NCBI GenBank assembly: GCA_964016885.1
Contig: OZ024763.1
Coordinates: forward strand, 23,188,001 to 23,252,000
Direction: 5' to 3'
Source of the DNA: Eledone cirrhosa
Lineage: Eukaryota
Length of the DNA stretch: 64,000 nt
The notes beneath the pieces are model-generated. The model had not been told where the DNA came from. It ran no database searches and saw only the letters and a program-made list of their open reading frames with translations. Made by a program: the position numbers and the translations under genes. Each line of letters begins with the position of its first letter. The first letter of the stretch is position 1. This document shows positions 29,674-64,000 of the stretch, piece by piece.

Positions 29674-29841
29674 ATTACAACAACATCCTAATTTTCTTAT
29701 CAACTATAAACTTTCGGATTTTCGCAGTTATCTCCCTTACACCTCTCGCACGCAATTTAGTATTGCCAGTGTGAAGTGATCGTTTCTGCACATGCGCATT
29801 CATACGGTTGTCCTTCCTGTTCCGTATAACCATGTCCATTA

Positions 29842-29879
29842 CGAGCTGAAGATCCGCTAAGGTGAAACAATTGTTCTCG
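29842..29879 (+). ncRNA. Minimal type I hammerhead ribozyme in the PLE 3' region (pLTR)
   Basis: cgag-CTGAAGA-tccgctaaggt-GAAA-caattg-TT-ctcg: 4-bp stem I, weak stem II, palindromic stem III. Confidence 0.75.
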
Positions 29880-30025
29880 GTATGGTGAACTAACTGTTGT
29901 GTTACCACTTCTACCTAACTCGTCCCATGGACTGAGTGCTCTATCACTATATATATATGTATATATATATATATTTCATTTCTGAATTTGTCTTATTGGC
30001 AACATGACCCTCCCAAAGCATAACA

Positions 30026-31127: not shown

Positions 31128-31809
31128 TGTATAAAGAATCAAAAAGAACAGAAAGATGCAGTAAAAGAGGTTTATTCGGTTCTAACGTACGTTTCAATAG
31201 ACATCAATTTGCCTAGATCTCGCTGCATCTATAATATTATATAGTTAGTAGAACATTCGACATCCAATGCACAATTGATTCCATATCATCAGATCTCTGA
31301 TGATATGGAATCAATTGTGCATTGGATGTCGAATGTTCTACTAACTATATAATTGTTTCTACTTTTGGCACATGGCCAGCAATTACCCAGTACATTACTG
31401 GTACTTTATTTTATCGACCCCGTAAGGATGAAAGGCAAAGTCAACCTCGGCGGGATTTGAACTCAGATCGTAAAGGGACGTAACTCTGCTGGAAAGCATG
31501 GCGTCCGACCCTCTACCGACACTGCCAATCCACCGCCCGTTCTACTAACTATATAATATTATAGATGCAGCGAGATCTAGGCAAATTGATGTCTATTGAA
31601 ACGTACGTTAGAACCGAATAAACCTCTTTTACTGCATCTTTCTGTTCTTTTTGATTCTTTATACAGGCCCCGGAGTATAGCTAAACTGGAATATACACCT
31701 ATTTTCTGCATTTCGTTGAGCACCACTATGTTCTAAGCTGACCTTCCCCTACACGGTACATAACACAGTGTCCTAGAAAACCTTAATGCACTCGTGCATA
31801 ACCAATTAT
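31128..31809. mobile_element. Fold-back HHR-containing element (probable PLE pLTR derivative), 166-bp inverted arms
   Basis: 31128-31293 is the reverse complement of 31296-31665 once the SINE is removed. Right arm reads tct-CTGATGA(31297)...GAAA(31598)-cgtacg-TT-aga. Confidence 0.85.
31354..31538 (-). mobile_element. Full-length OK-like SINE with 19-bp target-site duplication
   Basis: TSD GTTCTACTAACTATATAAT at 31335-31353 and 31539-31557. Confidence 0.93.
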
Positions 31810-32770: not shown

Positions 32771-33109
32771 ATATACATATATCTGTATGTGGTTGACAGC
32801 TGAGAGAAATGAGTACTGGGTATTGAGTAATATATATATATATGATATGTATATATATATATATGTATATATATACTCTCCTTATTATCTTTGCTTTCAT
32901 ATTTCTCCTTGCTCCCCTTTTCTCATTGTATTTGTATATAAACAAGTACATTGATACAAGGAGAAAAGGAGAGCAATGAGAGCAAGGAGAAAGGAGAGCA
33001 AGGAGAGCAAAGAGAGGTTAAAGCAAATATTGTTAAGGCAAGTATTGCTCAAGTTATGCTGGAAGCAGACAAAGGTGAAAAAATTAACGGAAGAGGTATT
33101 TTCTGCACC

Positions 33110-33823
33110 AAAATGACTTTTCTTTTTATTACAAACATCAAGTTTTCAACATGGAAGGATGATCCTGATTACAAAAGTGGACTTGAAAAACTTGAGAAGA
33201 CAGTTGTTGTGAATGATGTTGCAGAAAAAGGTGTCAAACTCATTCAGGATTACAATAACATTCTCACAAAAGATAAAACTGAGAAACAATTTGTTTTACA
33301 GATCGTTACTGAAAACCGTAAAACACACCCAACTGCCACTAAATCCTCTCTTATGCAAAAATGATTGTTTCTACTATTGTTCAATATTCAGTGTTCAGTG
33401 TTCACATTATGTTTTTGATTCTATAGAAATTATTTTTGTAAATAAAAATACATTTCTCTTAAGTTGTGTGCTTTATTAAGAAAACCTAATATTTTTTAGG
33501 TTTTTCATGTTATTTAAGGAATTTTTCAAATTAACTACTGGTAAATTTGATTCAGAACGTTTTTAAACATTTGCTAGGGTTGCCTGGATGTTTCCACATA
33601 AATTTCTCTCAGAAGAAAAAAGAAAATGGTCGAGATAGGGGACAGTATACTGCTTTTGAATAGAATTAATCGTTGCATATACTATGTTCCAACTTCAAGA
33701 CGATTGAGGGTCGCCTAACAGTTGTTCAATTGAGCTGAAACTTTGCACACCCCGTTTTTATGTTGATTGGAACAGGATTAGGGGGTGGGAGATGCAAAAT
33801 GTTAACTTTCGGAAAATTACCTA
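33110..33823 (+). pseudogene. C-terminal transposase remnant (hAT/hATm-like) plus right subterminal region
   Basis: STWKDDPDYKSGLEKLEKTVVVNDVAEKGVKLIQDYNNILTKD..Q.VLQIV.ENRK (VVND.AE[RK]GVKL motif). End AACTTTCGGAAAATTACCTA matches ~32740-32759. Confidence 0.7.
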
Positions 33824-33838
33824 TTGCTATATATATAT

Positions 33839-34718
33839 ATAATTGGTGTTGGATACTTAAAGCGTCCGTATGCGGTAGGCCGTATGAGCACTCGATGCTC
33901 TCATAGAGCAGAGTATGATACCACAGAAAAAGAGAATCAGTGTTGCGACGAATGGAATTTATTGGACATATTACAATCGTTTCTCTGGCGACCAGCTCGA
34001 GGCACGATCGATGTGGTGCGACCAGCTCGAGGCACGATCGATGTGGTGCGACCAGCTCGAGGCACGATCGATGTGGTGCGACCAGCTCGAGGCACGATCG
34101 ATGTGGTGCGACCAGCTCGAGGCACGATCGATGTGGTGCGACCAGCTCGAGGCACGATCGATGTGGTGCGACCAGCTCGGGGCACGATCGATGTGGTGCG
34201 ACCAGCTCGAGGCACGATCGATGTGGTGCGACCAGCTCGAGGCACGATCGATGTGGTGCGACCAGCTCGAGGCACGATCGATGTGGTGCGACCAGCTCGG
34301 GGCACGATCGATGTGGTGCGACCAGCTCGAGGCACGATCGATGTGGTGCGACCAGCTCGGGGCACGATCGATGTGGTGCGACCAGCTCGAGGCACGATCG
34401 ATGTGGTGCGACCAGCTCGGGGCACGATCGATGTGGTGCGACCAGCTCGGGGCACGATCGATGTGGTGCGACCAGCTCGGGGCACGATCGATGTGGTGCG
34501 ACCAGCTCGGGGCACGATCGATGTGGTGCGACCAGCTCGGGGCACGATCGATGTGGTGCGACCAGCTCGAGGCACGATCGATGTGCTGTGACCAGCTCGA
34601 GGCACGATCAATGTGGTGATCACCACATCGACCGTGCCTCGAGCTGGTCGCCACAGACACGATTGTAATATATCCAATAAATTCCATTCGTCGCAACACT
34701 GATTCTCTTTTTTTCTGT

Positions 34719-34723
<5 letters not shown>
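33839..34723. mobile_element. Fold-back HHR-derived element (same family as 45304-45510) with internal minisatellite
   Basis: Arms start at 33918 and end at 34723, centred on GTGGTGA|TCACCAC (34619/34620). GAAA-cgattg-TA on the minus strand at 33972-33983. Confidence 0.85.
33989..34618. repeat. 30-bp GC-rich minisatellite, 21 copies
   Basis: CGACCAGCTCGRGGCACGATCGATGTGGTG head-to-tail, no spacers. Confidence 0.98.
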
Positions 34724-34775
<52 letters not shown>

Positions 34776-41367: not shown

Positions 41368-44161
41368 TTAACTCTTTAGCATTTAAACCTGCCATATCTG
41401 GCTATTCATACTTATGTTAACTCTTTAGCATTTAAAGCTGCCGTATCTGACCAGAGTTCTCTCTCCTCATTTTGTTCAAACTGGCCGTAGCATGCTGCTC
41501 ATACTTATGTTAACACTTTAGCATTTAAACCTGCCGTATCTGGTCAGAGTTCTCTCCCCTCATTCTGTTCAAACTGGCCATAGCTTGCTGCTCACACTTA
41601 TGTTAAGGTATTGTTATCAAAATAAATAATGCCAAAATCTCATAAATTCGATATTATGTGAGATAAAGCCTTTTCTGGGAACCCCCAAGTCTACTTTTTT
41701 TCATTTATACCCCAGGCACTCCTTTGCAGAACCCTTGGGTTTCGTGTAACCCACTTTGGGAACCACTATGTTATGGTATTGTTCTCAAAATAAATAATAT
41801 CAAAATCTCATAGATTCAATATAAGGTGGGGTAAAGCCTTTACCGTGAAAATACAATAGTATATATAGAGTAATGTAAATGTTATGTGAGATAAAGCCTT
41901 TACTATGAAAATATAATAGTATATATAGAGTAATGTAAATGTTATGTGAGATATTATGTGAGATATAGCCTTTACCGTGAAAATACAATAGTATATATAG
42001 AGTAATGTAAATGTTATGTGAGATATTATGTGAGGTAAAGACTTTACTGTGAAAATATAATAGTATATATAGAGTAATGTAAATGTTATGTGAGATATTA
42101 TGTGAGATATAGCCTTTACCGTGAAAATACAATAGTATATATAGAGTAATGTAAATGTTATGTGAGATATTATGTGAGATATAGCCTTTACCGTGAAAAT
42201 ATAATAGTATATATAGAGTAATGTAAATGTTATGTGAGATATTATGTGAGATATAGCCTTTACCGTGAAAATACAATAGTATATATAGAGTAATGTAAAT
42301 GTTATGTGAGATATTATGTGAGATATAGCCTTTACCGTGAAAATACAATAGTATATATAGAGTAATGTAAATGTTATGTGAGATATTATGTGAGATATAG
42401 CCTTTACCGTGAAAATACAATAGTATATATAGAGTAATGTAAATGTTATGTGAGATATTATGTGAGATATAGCCTTTACCGTGAAAATACAATAGTATAT
42501 ATAGAGTAATGTAAATGTTATGTGAGATATTATGTGAGATATAGCCTTTACCGTGAAAATATAATAGTATATATAGAGTAATGTAAATGTTATGTGAGAT
42601 ATTATGTGAGATATAGCCTTTACCGTGAAAATACAATAGTATATATAGAGTAATGTAAATGTTATGTGAGATATTATGTGAGATAAAGCCTTTACCGTGA
42701 AAATACAATAGTATATATAGAGTAATGTAAATGTTATGTGAGATATTATGTGAGGTAAAGACTTTACTGTGAAAATATAATAGTATATATAGAGTAATGT
42801 AAATGTTATGTGAGATATTATGTGAGATAAAGCCTTTACTGTGAAAATACAATAGTATATATAGAGTAATGTAAATGTTATGTGAGATATTATGTGAGAT
42901 GATGCCTTTACTATGAAAATATAATAGTATGTATAGAGTAATGTAAATGTTATGTGAGATATTATGTGAGGTAAAGCCTTTACTGTGAAAATACAATAGT
43001 ATGTATAGAGTAATGTAAATGTTATGTGAGATATTATGTGAGGTAAAGACTTTACTGTGAAAATACAATAGTATATATAGAGTAATGTAAATGTTATGTG
43101 AGATAAAGCCTTTACTATGAAAATATAATAGTATATATAGAGTAATGTAAATGTTATGTGAGATATTATGTGAGATATAGCCTTTACTGTGAAAATACAA
43201 TAGTATATATAGAGTAATGTAAATGTTATGTGAGATATTATGTGAGATAAAGCCTTTACTGTGAAAATACAATAGTATATATAGAGTAATGTAAATGTTA
43301 TGTGAGATATTATGTGAGATATAGCCTTTACTGTGAAAATACAATAGTATATATAGAGTAATGTAAATGTTATGTGAGATATTATGTGAGATGATGCCTT
43401 TACTATGAAAATATAATAGTATGTATAGAGTAATGTAAATGTTATGTGAGATATTATATGAGGTAAAACCTTTACCGTGAAAATACAATAGTATATATAG
43501 AGTAATGTAAATGTTATGTGAGATATTATGTGAGGTAAAGACTTTACTGTGAAAATACAATAGTATGTATAGAGTAATGTAAATGTTATGTGAGATATTA
43601 TGTGAGGTAAAGCCTTTACTGTGAAAATACAATAGTATATATAGAGTAATGTAAATGTTAGGTGAGATATTATGTGAGGTAAAGACTTTACTGTGAAAAT
43701 ACAATAGTATATATAGAGTAATGTAAATGTTATGTGAGATATTATGTGAGGTAAAGTCTTTACTGTGAAAATACAATAGTATATATAGAGTAATGTAAAT
43801 GTTATGTGAGATATTATGTGAGGTAAAGCCTTTACTGTGAAAGTACAATAGTATATATAGAGTAATGTAAATGTTATGTGAGATATTATATGAGGTAAAA
43901 CCTTTACCGTGAAAATACAATAGTATATATAGAGTAATGTAAATGTTAGGTGAGATATTATGTGAGGTAAAGACTTTACTGTGAAAATACAATAGTATGT
44001 ATAGAGTAATGTAAATGTTATGTGAGATATTATGTGAGGTAAAGACTTTACTGTGAAAATACAATAGTATATATAGAGTAATGTAAATGTTATGTGAGGT
44101 AAAGCCTTTACTGTGAAAATATAATAGTATATATAGAGTAATGTAAATGTTAATGGGTTAA
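41368..44161. mobile_element. TTAA-bounded (piggyBac-like) MITE with reiterated left ends and an internal 72-bp array
   Basis: Left ends TTAAC[T/A]CTTTAGCATTTAAA at 41368, 41417 and 41510; right end TAAATGTTAATGGGTTAA at 44161. Colinear with the unexpanded copy at 63576-63872. Confidence 0.75.
41830..44150. repeat. 72-bp tandem array (~32 copies, some 60-bp variants)
   Basis: Lines 42121 and 42481 are identical (5x72). The 24-aa periodic ORF on the minus strand is a by-product. Confidence 0.97.
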
Positions 44162-45032: not shown

Positions 45033-45263
45033 GACATGTGATGCACATGGAGGATGACCGCTGGGTAAAGAAGTGCCAAGAAATCCCAGTAGAAGGAAGA
45101 CGTGGTAGAGGAAGACCACAAAAAACACGGGCGGAGGTGGTAAGAGCAGACCTCGGATCGCTGAAACTCACCGAGGAGATGACAAAGGACTGTGACAAGT
45201 GGAGAGATGCTGTGCTGAATAAGACCCGTCCCACCCTTGCAAGCAGGGAAAAACGTATGTGGA

Positions 45264-45295
<32 letters not shown>
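45033..45295 (+). mobile_element. RTE LINE 3' fragment (subfamily B)
   Basis: HVMHMEDDRWVKKCQEIPVEGRRGRGRPQKT..DKWRDAV; (GAT)n tail. Confidence 0.9.
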
Positions 45296-45374
45296 ATATA
45301 TATATAATTGGTGTGGGATGCTTAAAGCGTCCGTATGCGGTAGGCCGTTTGATCACTCTGCTTCTAAGAATCAA

Positions 45375-45461
45375 GACGTATCTGAGGATCTTGCGATTTC
45401 AGTCGATCATTGCATCGATCGTGCCTGGAGCTGGTCGCCAGAGAAACGGTTGTAATATGTC
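45375..45461 (+). ncRNA. Complete type I hammerhead ribozyme with extended stem II
   Basis: gacgtat-CTGAGGA-tct...aga-GAAA-cggttg-TA-atatgtc; 7-bp stem I, GUA cleavage triplet. Lies within element 45304-45510. Confidence 0.85.
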
Positions 45462-45583
45462 TAATAAATTTTATTCATCGCACCACTGATTCTCCATTTC
45501 TTATGTGATACATATATATATATATATATAACCAAGACTGGAATTGAACCATCAGCACAGTTGAGATATGTCAGACATCAATT

Positions 45584-45649
45584 TATTTTATCTGATGAGG
45601 ACGTACTGAGGAAACAGCACAGTACCTCTGAAATATATATAATAAAATA
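45584..45649 (+). ncRNA. Complete type I hammerhead ribozyme
   Basis: tattttat-CTGATGA-ggacgtactg..cagtacctct-GAAA-tatata-TA-ataaaata; 8-bp stem I, palindromic stem III. Confidence 0.85.
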
Positions 45650-45709
45650 TATTTGATCACATGAATGTCTATATTTATTAATATTTTTAATTAATATATA
45701 TATATATAT

Positions 45710-49878: not shown

Positions 49879-50084
49879 GTTATATTTATAAATAATAATA
49901 ATGAAATTATTGTGTACAGTGCTCAGGTGCACTACAACTCATCAAAGGTGCATAAATTCTTGATAATCTTTTTTTCTCCAAAATATTTGAAAATGTGTGT
50001 ATTTTTGTCTTAGGCAGTTGGGTATAAAAAAGGGTTAATGTTAAATTTGGCTGCTATTTCTAGCAGGAAAAGTGGTCGTACAGA

Positions 50085-50890
50085 GGCTATCTAGGTGGCT
50101 TCTAATTAAATTATGTGAATATGTATGAGGTGTAGAAGTGGCCATACTGGGGTAATCTCGTTAGCTTCTAGTTAAATACGTGAATATGTATGAGGTGTAG
50201 AAGTGGCCATACTGGGGCAATCTGGGTGGCTTCTAATTAAATACGTGAATATGTATGAGGTGTAGAAGTGGCCATACTGGGGCAATCTGGGTGGCTTCTA
50301 ATTAAATTATGTGAATATGTATGAGGTGTAGAAGTGGCCATACTGGGGCAATCTGGGTGGCTTCTAATTAAATTATGTGAATATGTATGAGGTGTAGAAG
50401 TGGCCATACTGGGGTAATCTGGGTGGCTTCTAGTTAAATTATGTGAATATGTATGAGGTGTAGAAGTGGCCATACTGGGGTAATCTGGGTGGCTTCTAAT
50501 TAAATTATGTGAATATGTATGAGGTGTAAAAGTGGCCATACTGGAGCTATCTCGTTAGCTGCTAATTAAATACATATGTATGAGGTGTAGAAGTGGCCAT
50601 ACTGGGGCTATCTAGGTGGCTTCTAATTAAGTAGAGGAAGACCACGAAAAACATGGGCGGAGGTGGTGAGAGCAGACCTCAGATTGCTGAAGCTCACAGA
50701 GGAGATGACGAAGGACCATGACAAGTGGAGAGATGCTGTGCTGAATAGGACCCGTCCCACCCTTGCAAGCAGGGAAAAGGGGATATAAAATGATGATGAT
50801 GATGATGATGAATATGTATGAGGTGTAGAAGTGGCCATACTGAGGCTATCTAGGTGGATTCTAATTAAATTACGTGAATATGTATGAGGT
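50085..50890. repeat. 66-bp tandem array interrupted by an RTE 3' fragment
   Basis: Unit AATTAAATTATGTGAATATGTATGAGGTGTAGAAGTGGCCATACTGGGGCAATCTGGGTGGCTTCT. Confidence 0.95.
50631..50810 (+). mobile_element. RTE LINE 3' fragment (subfamily B) inserted in the 66-bp array
   Basis: Matches 45105-45295; (GAT)n tail. Confidence 0.9.
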
Positions 50891-52312: not shown

Positions 52313-52718
52313 CACATATATATACAAACATATATATATATATTATATATACACATATATATACAAACCTTAACTTTACATTATTTTTCTCTTCGTTAAT
52401 TTTCAAATTCTTTTAATTTATACATTATCTTCCAACGGTTTTTCAACCTCTCTATGTAAAACAATATATTTTTCTCAGTTATAGAAGCTATCTCTCTCTC
52501 TGTATCACCCATCTCTCCTCCTATCTCATCCTTCCTCATTATACCCCCGCCCCGCCACTTTTTACTCTCATCTCCTCTTTTCATCCGTTCCACCCCACCC
52601 CACCCCCCTCAACATTTTTTCCCCCCAATATCACACATCAATCTAAAACTACTTTTCATATGTTGATTTAAAACTGCACTATCCACAAGTGTTTTTTAAC
52701 CTTCATATCATGTCTTCC

Positions 52719-52789
52719 TATTTTATCTGATGAAAACACAAATGTTATTGCATGATGATATTTGTTTTTGAAATGCGCATAATAAAATA
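52719..52789 (+). ncRNA. Complete type I hammerhead ribozyme
   Basis: tattttat-CTGATGA-aaacacaaatgttatt gcat gatgatatttgttttt-GAAA-tgcgca-TA-ataaaata. Confidence 0.87.
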
Positions 52790-53259
52790 CATGGAACTCT
52801 TTTAACCATCTTTTGATCTTATATATTACACACATATATATGTGTATATATAATATATATATATGTATTTATATGTGTGTGTGTATATATATATATATGC
52901 AATGGTCTAGAAAAGAAAGAGAGATCGGGAGAGTGAGAGCAAGAGAGAGCCTCATAATTATGCGAGAAAAAGGCTGACATTATCATAATTATCAACAAAG
53001 AAATAGTTGTGTGAACAGGCCAAGGAACTGGACATCTTGTTCCCACAGAGTCAAGGATTTTTATTAGGGTCATATATATAAATCCCTATTGTCAATTCTC
53101 CTATATCATCATCATCATGTTTATTGTGTGTGTGTATATATATATATATATTTATACAATAAGAAGTTACATATATATATGTGTGTGGGTATATATCATT
53201 TGCGTTTCAGCCGAAGAGCTGAGACCATGCTGGGGCACTGCCACTGATACATATATATT

Positions 53260-57290: not shown

Positions 57291-57860
57291 GTATCTCCGA
57301 GGCCATAGTGTCTAGAATAAGGACGGGTTGGAAGAAGTTTAGAGAGCTACTTCCTCTGCTGACGAAGAAGGGTTTCTCCCTGCGTACGAAAGGCCGGTTA
57401 TATGATGACTGTGTGAGGAGCGCGATGCTGCATGGTAGTGAGACTTGGGCAGCAACTGTAGAGGATATGCGACGGCTGGAGAGAAATGAGGCAAGCATGC
57501 TCTGTTGGATGTGCAATGTGCGTGAACGACCCAGCATGGATGTGTTGAGAGAGAAAGTGTGTCTGAGAGGGATAGAATGTAGTGTGCGAGAGAGGAGACT
57601 GAGGTGGTATGGACATGTGATGCGCATGGAGGATGACCGATGGCTGAAGAAGTGCCAGGAAATGCCAGTTGAAGGAAGACGTGGTAGAGGTAGACCACAA
57701 AAAATATGGGCCAGAGGTGGTGAGAACAGACCTCAGATCACTGAAGCTCACGGTGGAGATGACGAAGGACCGTGACAAGTGGAGAGATGCTGTGCTGAAT
57801 AAGACCCGTCCCACCCTTGCAAGCAGGGAAAAGTGGATGTAAAATGATGATGATGATGAT
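57291..57860 (+). mobile_element. RTE LINE 3' fragment (subfamily B)
   Basis: SRIRTGWKKFRELLPLL..AMLHGSETW..RLRWYGHVMRMEDDRW..GRGRPQK; (GAT)n tail. Confidence 0.93.
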
Positions 57861-62855: not shown

Positions 62856-63575
62856 ATTAAGTTGTTCTTTGGAATATAACTTAACAAAGGAGGGAATGCT
62901 TTGTGGTCTTGTCCACAAGGACGAGCCCCGATACCACGGCACCTTACGCCAAAATCCCATCACCCTTCTCCCTCCCGTTATTCTCTGACCCTACAGCCTT
63001 TGTATTTCCCTTCCTTTTCTGTTTTCATAACCACAAAGGACACTTGAATTTTTTTACAATAAATTATGTATTTAATAAAAGTTCTTACATAAAATTATGA
63101 TGGAAGGTTTGTTTTAGATAAACATAAACATTTTAACCCTTTATTACCATATTTCTCATGAAAGATACTGTCGATGAATTTCAAATAATTGAAAAAATAA
63201 TCAACAATTGGGAGGTATTTAGTCATATAACTAACTTTCTGGTGTTAGGAACATAACTTAACCCGTTAGAATTTAAACTGACCATATCTGGCCAGAATTC
63301 TCTCACCTCTTTCTGTTCAAACCGGCTGTAACTGGCTGCTCATACTGATGTTCAAAATCTCGTAGATTTGATATTATGTGAGATAAGCCTTTACTGCAAA
63401 AATACAATAGTATGTAGAGTTATTAAAGTTTCTTACATAAAATTATGATGGAAATTTTTTTTTAGATAAATATAGACATTTTTCTTTTAAATCATTTTGA
63501 AAATAATCATGAATTTGGAGGGATTTAGTAATATAACTAACTTTCTCATTATTGAGCTGGTGTTTGGAACATAAC

Positions 63576-63872
63576 TTAACCCTTTAGCATTTAAACTAGC
63601 CATATCTGGCCAGAATTCCCTCACCCCCTTCTGTACAAACTGGTTGTAAGCAGCCCCTCATACTGACGTTAACTCTTTAGCATTTAAACTGGCAGTATCC
63701 GGCCATAATTCCCTCACTTTTTCTGTTCATAACCAGCCACCCATACTGATGTTAAGGTATTCTTCTCAAAATAAATAATATCAAAATCTCATAGATTCGA
63801 TATTATGTGAGATAAAACTTTTTCTGCAAAAACACAATAGTAAATATAGAGCAATGTACATGGTAGAGTTAA
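63576..63872. mobile_element. TTAA-specific (piggyBac-like) MITE, unexpanded copy; a shorter copy lies at 63258-63422
   Basis: Splits the host unit GGAACATAAC-TTAA-[C/T]AAAGGTTCTTACATA at its TTAA, with TTAA on both sides; starts CCCTTTAGCATTTAAA. Confidence 0.8.
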
Positions 63873-64000
63873 TAAAGGTTCTTACATAAAAATATATGAT
63901 GGAAGGATTTTATATCAATATAAACACTTTAATCCTTTCATTACCATATTGCTAATGGAAGACACTGTCTAGGTTTTCAAATAATTTTGAAAATAATTAA

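Follow-up and report, generated by a model that had tools for sequence, protein, structure and literature searches.

A minisatellite at 33988–34617 of the 64,000-nt stretch of Eledone cirrhosa DNA analysed here (the window) comprises 21.0 copies of a 30-bp unit (98% matches; the tandem call extends to 34618) and is likely transposon-derived, lying within a two-armed insertion that is itself probably of Penelope type. It is confined to the left arm of this insertion, where it abuts the fold-back axis, which takes up the position of unit 22, while the right arm (34622–34722) has a single copy of the unit; repeat call and alignment both confirm this arrangement, which had been described in the first-pass annotation. 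The locus as a whole is likely a Penelope-type inverted insertion in (TA)n, an assignment made by layout alone. Its features and those of a sister copy at 45.3 kb are as follows.

33828–33841, no strand: (TA)7, left part of the target microsatellite (from the sequence)
33842–33918, minus strand: family tail of ~75 bp, present in the left arm only (from the continuation behind 45358 in contigs and reads)
33919–33987, minus strand: body of the left arm, containing AATAAA, 3′ sequence and the predicted hammerhead's 3′ half (GAAAC, stem III, cut site, 3′ strand of stem I) (87% to 45413–45514)
33988–34617, minus strand: minisatellite, 21 × 30 bp, unit equal to the apical loop plus 3′ strand of stem II
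34617–34622, no strand: fold-back axis TGATCA, core GATC at 34618–34621 (from loose ends in family copies)
34622–34722, plus strand: right arm, one unit plus body, to the inner end of the family (from comparison with family depth)
34721–34764, no strand: (TA)22, right part of the target microsatellite (from the repeat call)
45306–45358, minus strand: sister copy, short inverted arm equal to the outer 53 bp of the tail (93% to 33835–33893)
45359–45510, plus strand: sister copy, forward 5′-truncated arm with a predicted type I hammerhead and a (TA)n end, without an array

Architecture of the insertion and its family

The reverse complement of the unit is identical at 25/26 bases to 45413–45438 of the sister copy, and the sole mismatch (45427) is private to that copy, the base of the array being present in 99% of X1 depth. 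On the fold of the hammerhead predicted there, the unit comprises the apical loop of stem II plus most of its 3′ strand, down to the first internal loop; the earlier derivation of the unit from stem II thus stands for this part, but not for the stem as a whole. Microhomology at the junction between units is just 1 nt, and the long open frames that run through the array result from the lack of stop codons in the 30-mer itself. By its context and by the family copies, the array is linked to the element rather than being an independent satellite, the alternative that the annotation had named.

The hammerhead predicted at 45374–45462, previously annotated as a complete ribozyme at 45375–45461, has a type I layout. 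Folding pairs 45374–81 with 45455–62 in an 8-bp stem I and gives a long stem II (45389–45442); the core (CTGAGGA at 45382, GAAA at 45443) and a stem III of 2 bp with a tetraloop were read from the sequence, with a predicted cut after 45454. Rfam returned 0 matches at gathering level, 45374–45462 included. In the 45.3-kb copy the 5′ strand of stem II is ~8 nt shorter than in many reads (158/339 and 181/421). Loose ends define a subfamily with TGATCA at the apex of stem II, in which CCGAGGA often replaces CTGAGGA in the core, and T>C at 45383 was seen in 46/538 reads. Three more predicted type I hammerhead-like motifs, of unrelated sequence (29834–29888, 45580–45652 and 52716–52792), each lie near (TA)n. 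At the array locus, C(T/C)GANGA is absent from both strands of 33840–34723 and GAAAC is changed in the right arm; the locus is therefore without a whole ribozyme, and it likely has no function.

Placement of four public runs on the sister copy (45306–45512), X4 being the one used among those with small word shares, gave 1,568 + 4 contigs and 2,067 + 1,972 reads. Behind 45358 the sequence continues as in the array locus at 33894 in 62 X1 contigs, 346 + 313 reads and one X4 contig (second organism), and behind 45510 it continues as (TA)n in 26 contigs and 158 reads. These recurrent continuations indicate a family with two fixed ends ~75 bp apart. After the tail continuation, family copies enter the body on the opposite strand, with opposite-strand joints from 45352–45358 to 45510. 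The left arm of the array locus begins at the outer end, with the tail, and its right arm reaches as far as the inner end; the same build, with an inverted (left) arm of 53 bp, is found in the sister copy, itself a fold-back insertion. The tail at 33842–33918 probably represents the stretch between two reverse-transcription start sites. Interpretation of 33842–33913 as a private second inversion was rejected, since the continuation is family-wide in reads and contigs.

In passages of PMC8557442, inverted insertions of Penelope-like elements (PLEs) consist of an inverted 5′-truncated copy joined to a forward copy, with a one-sided tail of 30–40 bp, (TA)n, and a type I hammerhead near the 3′ end. 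All of these were found here, the hammerhead as a predicted motif and the one-end tail longer than published (~75 bp); further differences are that no ORF was seen and that an array, which does not figure in those passages, occupies the joint. The same source gives (TA)n as the target of both the Hydra and Naiad clades, and in the part concerned hammerheads are reported for Hydra, not Naiad. Both copies here are flanked by (TA)n, a Hydra-clade feature that is common to Naiad too and hence not diagnostic. Within the window, where both copies are 3′ fragments of ≤280 bp (array aside), no reverse transcriptase ORF could be tied to the family; in EN+ PLEs such an ORF would encode a telomerase-related RT with a GIY-YIG endonuclease, and in the Hydra clade it would be marked by RWK and DKT and by the lack of CCHH. 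Four 12-nt motifs had 0 matches in the supplement of PMC8557442, where line breaks or divergence could mask one.

The two arms are complementary at 94% over 97 nt and meet without a spacer. The four runs were also placed on 34528–34722 for the axis word and the right arm. Parent copies carry the axis word: in one group it is GATC (10, 9 and 13 contigs with loose ends before 34618), and in another it is TGATCA (9, 9 and 5 contigs with loose ends before 34617; 8 + 4 contigs and 118 reads with loose ends behind 34622). Self-complementary words are frequent in stem II, so the coincidence of axis and word is not strong on its own, and joints in other family copies lie at varied places (45366, 45367, 45424, 45432, 45479 and 45484).

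Four private substitutions (34632, 34654, 34658 and 34672), one of them altering GAAAC, and a longer T run are found in the right arm. Nearly all family depth disagrees with the substitutions (25,753/25,761 at 34632 in X1; 88/89 reads at 34654 in X23), and at 4/4 sites where the arms differ the left arm has the family-majority base. Formation of the right arm by snap-back copying of the left cDNA is less likely, its end at the inner end of the family implying priming of its own. Between 34586 and 34672, ≤53 bp from the axis, there are 7 private substitutions (3 transversions), compared with 0–1 elsewhere in the element outside the array; these may stem from consensus error, mutagenesis of the hairpin or error-prone fill-in.

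The array length is that of the assembly alone. Among the 24 pieces listed of 2,008 placed on 34528–34722 (four runs, a reduced-representation run among them), none spans the axis or a unit junction; all 24 lie on the right arm, and no joints were listed. The best runs contain 0.21–0.36 of the words of 33370–34017, part of these being family words, so the public runs may not contain the array locus. A 20-nt unit-junction pattern was found at 3 loci in metagenome contigs, as the 20-mer only, with no array and in unrelated GC-rich DNA, and these matches were attributed to chance.

Elsewhere in the window, 1–27486 is a 55-bp satellite (about 503 copies, 94% matches) with no match in the remaining sequence, and six hand-picked local arrays account for 6,576 of the 36,514 bp outside it. 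A 72-bp × 31 array (41406–44098) and a 93-bp duplication match a dispersed repeat near 63.3–63.9 kb (63258–63896), and judged from its sequence this array is a second element-derived minisatellite. At 50070–50830 a 66-bp × 8.6 array is followed directly by a 3′ fragment common to 45105–45294 and 57684–57860, which looks like the end of an RTE-type LINE with an (ATG)n tail. Left of the insertion, at 32942–33364, is a 140-aa open remnant with no Pfam hit, presumably resembling the C-terminus of a DNA transposase; a Pfam search with four ORF remnants gave one weak match, below its cut-off. A fold-back element of another family follows (TA)n at 31128–31665. Its outer arms (127 nt) are 100% complementary, a 118-bp palindrome (98%) has its centre near 31294, shortly ahead of a CTGATGA motif, a dispersed repeat splits the element's right arm at about 31354–31538, and its axis is without an array.

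Unit variation and growth of the array

Unit by unit, the A/G state of all 21 units is AAAAAAGAAAGAGAGGGGGAA. The A>G change is common to 8/21 units, which are non-adjacent, and units 1–19 are otherwise identical; unit 1, unit 21 and both arms are of the A type. G units are skewed towards the axis (p = 0.0009 for units 1–19, p = 0.022 for all 21), and a runs test on the A/G order gives p = 0.25, not significant. One private transversion (34586) marks unit 20, and two CpG transitions (34589 and 34610) mark unit 21. The A/G variant had been taken as the variation among units and as a sign of later turnover; turnover agrees with the sharing of A>G by eight units and with its gradient, but the variant does not stand alone, given the three private changes in units 20–21.

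When independent decay of 21 units was simulated, a change shared by eight units arose in 0/20,000 runs for every one of the five rates used (0.5–5%), which implies at least seven copying or conversion events after A>G. Sharing by eight non-adjacent units also implies that the units were not each read from one RNA, and the argument from the shared variant is independent of the age of the insertion. The G variant is found in dispersed copies too (70/808 and 29/734 reads at 45426) and could therefore have entered the array by conversion. A-to-I editing was rejected as the source of the A/G difference: antisense retro-copying would be needed, and this type of editing disfavours a 5′ G context. 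Much of the 21-copy number is likely due to later slippage or unequal exchange at the DNA level; later slippage, which the first-pass annotation had offered as its alternative, fits the copy number in view of the shared and graded A>G change.

The interior of the array is homogeneous, with 1 distinct change in the 570 bp of units 1–19 vs 4–5 in 249 non-array bp (p = 0.012–0.032; split chosen post hoc), and CpG decay amounts to 0/76 in units 1–19 vs 2/4 in unit 21 (post hoc test, corrected p about 0.003). For all 21 units against non-array sequence, homogeneity is not significant (p = 0.08–0.16), and for an insertion at 0.5% divergence interior homogeneity alone would be unremarkable (P = 0.23). 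Units 20–21, with 3 changes in 60 bp, are similar to the right arm, with 4 in 101, and the left arm has 0–1 changes in 148 bp (variant site 33855). Within 53 bp of the axis lie 7/8 private changes, and the insertion may be young, with changes made at the joint.

Formation of the first duplication

The observed layout would arise if cDNA was primed from either end of a cut (TA)n, once at the outer start site (tailed arm) and once at the inner site (tail-less arm). Both cDNAs would then extend along the 3′ strand as far as the apex of stem II and join at GATC/TGATCA, giving the spacer-less palindrome. Pairing of two identical 3′ ends is possible only at a self-complementary word, hence a joint at GATC/TGATCA; the word is present at the axis and annealing there would account for it. 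The least secure step would be the third, in which stop-and-restart fill-in across the joint would re-copy the adjacent 30 nt with 1 nt of microhomology, yielding a seed of 2–3 units and possibly the axis-clustered substitutions as well. In the fourth, repeated copying or conversion of interior units, ≥7 times after A>G, with units 20–21 frozen at the axis, would produce the observed variant pattern. The first, second and fourth steps taken together are considered probable. Adding an early seed to them, i.e. a 30-bp duplication during or soon after joint closure, gives a reading that falls just short of an even chance.

An early seed is suggested by units 20–21, which are as diverged as the right arm, as if the array already had two or three units at an early stage. 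For a 30-bp duplication placed at random, contact with the axis is expected in 4–10% of placements. Among other family copies, seven distinct junctions have readable letters, and one of them (a single X1 contig at depth 6.9) carries 45484–45489 twice in tandem, a 6-bp duplication 9 nt from the joint 45336/45484. The window is rich in local arrays, however, so adjacency to the axis could be a selected coincidence.

The strongest alternative, plausible though somewhat doubtful, leaves the insertion and its DNA-level growth unchanged and places the first duplication afterwards, whether promoted by the palindrome (hairpin or cruciform stalling, central repair) or by chance. The palindrome is perfect over ~100 bp and the 64 bp around its axis fold at −30.1 kcal/mol as DNA, 2/3 edge-unit changes are of the CpG-transition type that slow decay typically produces, and the neighbouring 72-bp × 31 array likewise matches a dispersed repeat. 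A rough rate of 0.2–0.5% per element (6 arrays per 36.5 kb × 284 bp × 4–10%) would give several such cases among thousands of elements. A later seed fits less well with units 20 and 21, each of which has its own changes at the rate of the right arm, suggesting three early units (counts are low), and 1 nt of microhomology at the unit junction is little for ordinary replication slippage.

A further reading, in which Penelope joint closure acts as a minisatellite-seeding step through a vestigial telomerase-like repeat-addition cycle on the ribozyme arm, is unlikely. The enzyme would stall at the apex of stem II, the hairpin would refold and free the nascent strand, and synthesis would restart at the stem's base several times. 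Were this so, seeds would be left at inversion joints genome-wide.

That a Penelope reverse transcriptase produced the entire array at insertion, re-reading the 3′ strand of stem II ~20 times in the manner of telomerase or DRT2, is very improbable. The unit does span the first internal loop to the apical loop of stem II, as a hairpin-refolding model predicts, and the array has the orientation of first-strand cDNA and lies where the left cDNA ends; telomerase is the sister of the PLE reverse transcriptases (passages of PMC8557442), and DRT2 makes tandem cDNA by template jumps (passages of PMC12039810). The parts of the latter source that deal with telomerase and DRT2 describe head-to-tail antisense copies of a structured RNA segment, then a sense copy, as here, but DRT2 jumps recur at fixed borders on a dedicated RNA scaffold, whereas here the junction occurs once and a mutation is inherited between units. 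The shared and graded A/G variant requires DNA or cDNA as template, and with unit 1, unit 21 and both arms of the A type, two alternating RNA templates are unsupported. A structure-programmed jump should also recur, yet arrays are lacking from both the sister copy and the 31.1-kb fold-back, and 0/13 joints listed go back (1,568 + 4 contigs and 2,067 + 1,972 reads, of which ~800 and 730 cover 45426); joints with 21–25-base sides were listed, the sensitivity of detection for 26-base pieces being uncertain. The proposal of the first-pass annotation that reiterative reverse transcription made the 21 copies is thus not supported, given the eight units sharing A>G, the 0/20,000 simulations and the lack of a listed back-joint, and the tandem expansion it suggested looking for in other family copies, a duplication of this segment, is not among the 13 joints listed from contigs and reads of the four runs.

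Consensus error, with the array length or the axis substitutions as a long-read artefact at a hairpin, is likewise very improbable: the array or axis is in none of the pieces listed from public runs and the private changes are concentrated at the centre of the hairpin (post hoc p about 0.0015; 3/7 transversions), but the arms end at the two natural ends of the family, unlike those of a read fold-back, the A/G states follow an order, CpG transitions make up two of the edge changes, and absence from the listing is expected, as short-read contigs break in a 30-bp cycle.

Relation to known systems and significance

Two-sided priming has a parallel in Poseidon PAc (Anolis), for which passages of PMC11167929 report that both target strands are cut and extended in vitro and that two start sites bound the tail; two internal start sites would likewise bound the tail here. 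In those passages no reiterative synthesis is reported and the joining of two cDNAs is not shown. Templated insertions and L1 inversion junctions are alike in microhomology joining and in local re-copying that is sometimes iterative (parts of PMC12426944 and PMC11702581), and iterative, minimally primed templated insertion is a known outcome at microhomology joints (PMC12426944, in part). Templated insertions are, however, mostly <25 bp and patchy in the text concerned, so that 21 clean copies need later expansion, and in L1 inversion duplications (passages of PMC11702581) the template overlaps lie between opposite arms, a different geometry.

Minisatellites derived from transposons include those from Alu, B1, the MaLR loci Ms6-hm/Hm-2 and Gmr9 (passages of PMC9659126), in which the unit is a contiguous in-place piece of a retroelement, amplified at one locus. 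The same holds here, the unit being a contiguous piece of a dispersed element in its context (family copies in four runs), with variant units interspersed. The differences from the examples in that text are the source, a hammerhead stem of a PLE-type element, the position at an inversion joint and the flanking microhomology of 1 nt. Metazoan non-LTR retrozymes share the link to PLEs and a hammerhead of type I in which helix III has 2 bp and a tetraloop, the form known from invertebrates, but in the portions of PMC7229834 and bioRxiv 10.64898/2026.07.22.740005 concerned their monomers are of 170–400 nt, each with a whole ribozyme. The present unit is a 30-bp fragment with no core and the sister copy is single; the array is not a retrozyme array, though the family may have a longer monomer elsewhere. 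Titles and opening abstract lines in the literature covered, where subscription journals are thinly represented, describe no minisatellite at a PLE inversion joint.

As it stands, the array is one more transposon-derived minisatellite in a genome where these abound. The finishing of PLE inverted insertions is named as an open task in a passage of PMC8557442, and the locus adds two details on how Penelope-type inverted insertions are finished, namely the joint word and the clustering at the joint. The word at which the arms join is self-complementary and comes from the parent, a result that annealing of two identical cDNA ends would predict, and duplications and substitutions cluster at this joint. 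If joints seed tandem repeats genome-wide, which one locus is insufficient to show, PLE reverse transcriptases would be linked to repeat addition, and there would be a route from ribozyme-bearing elements to satellites.
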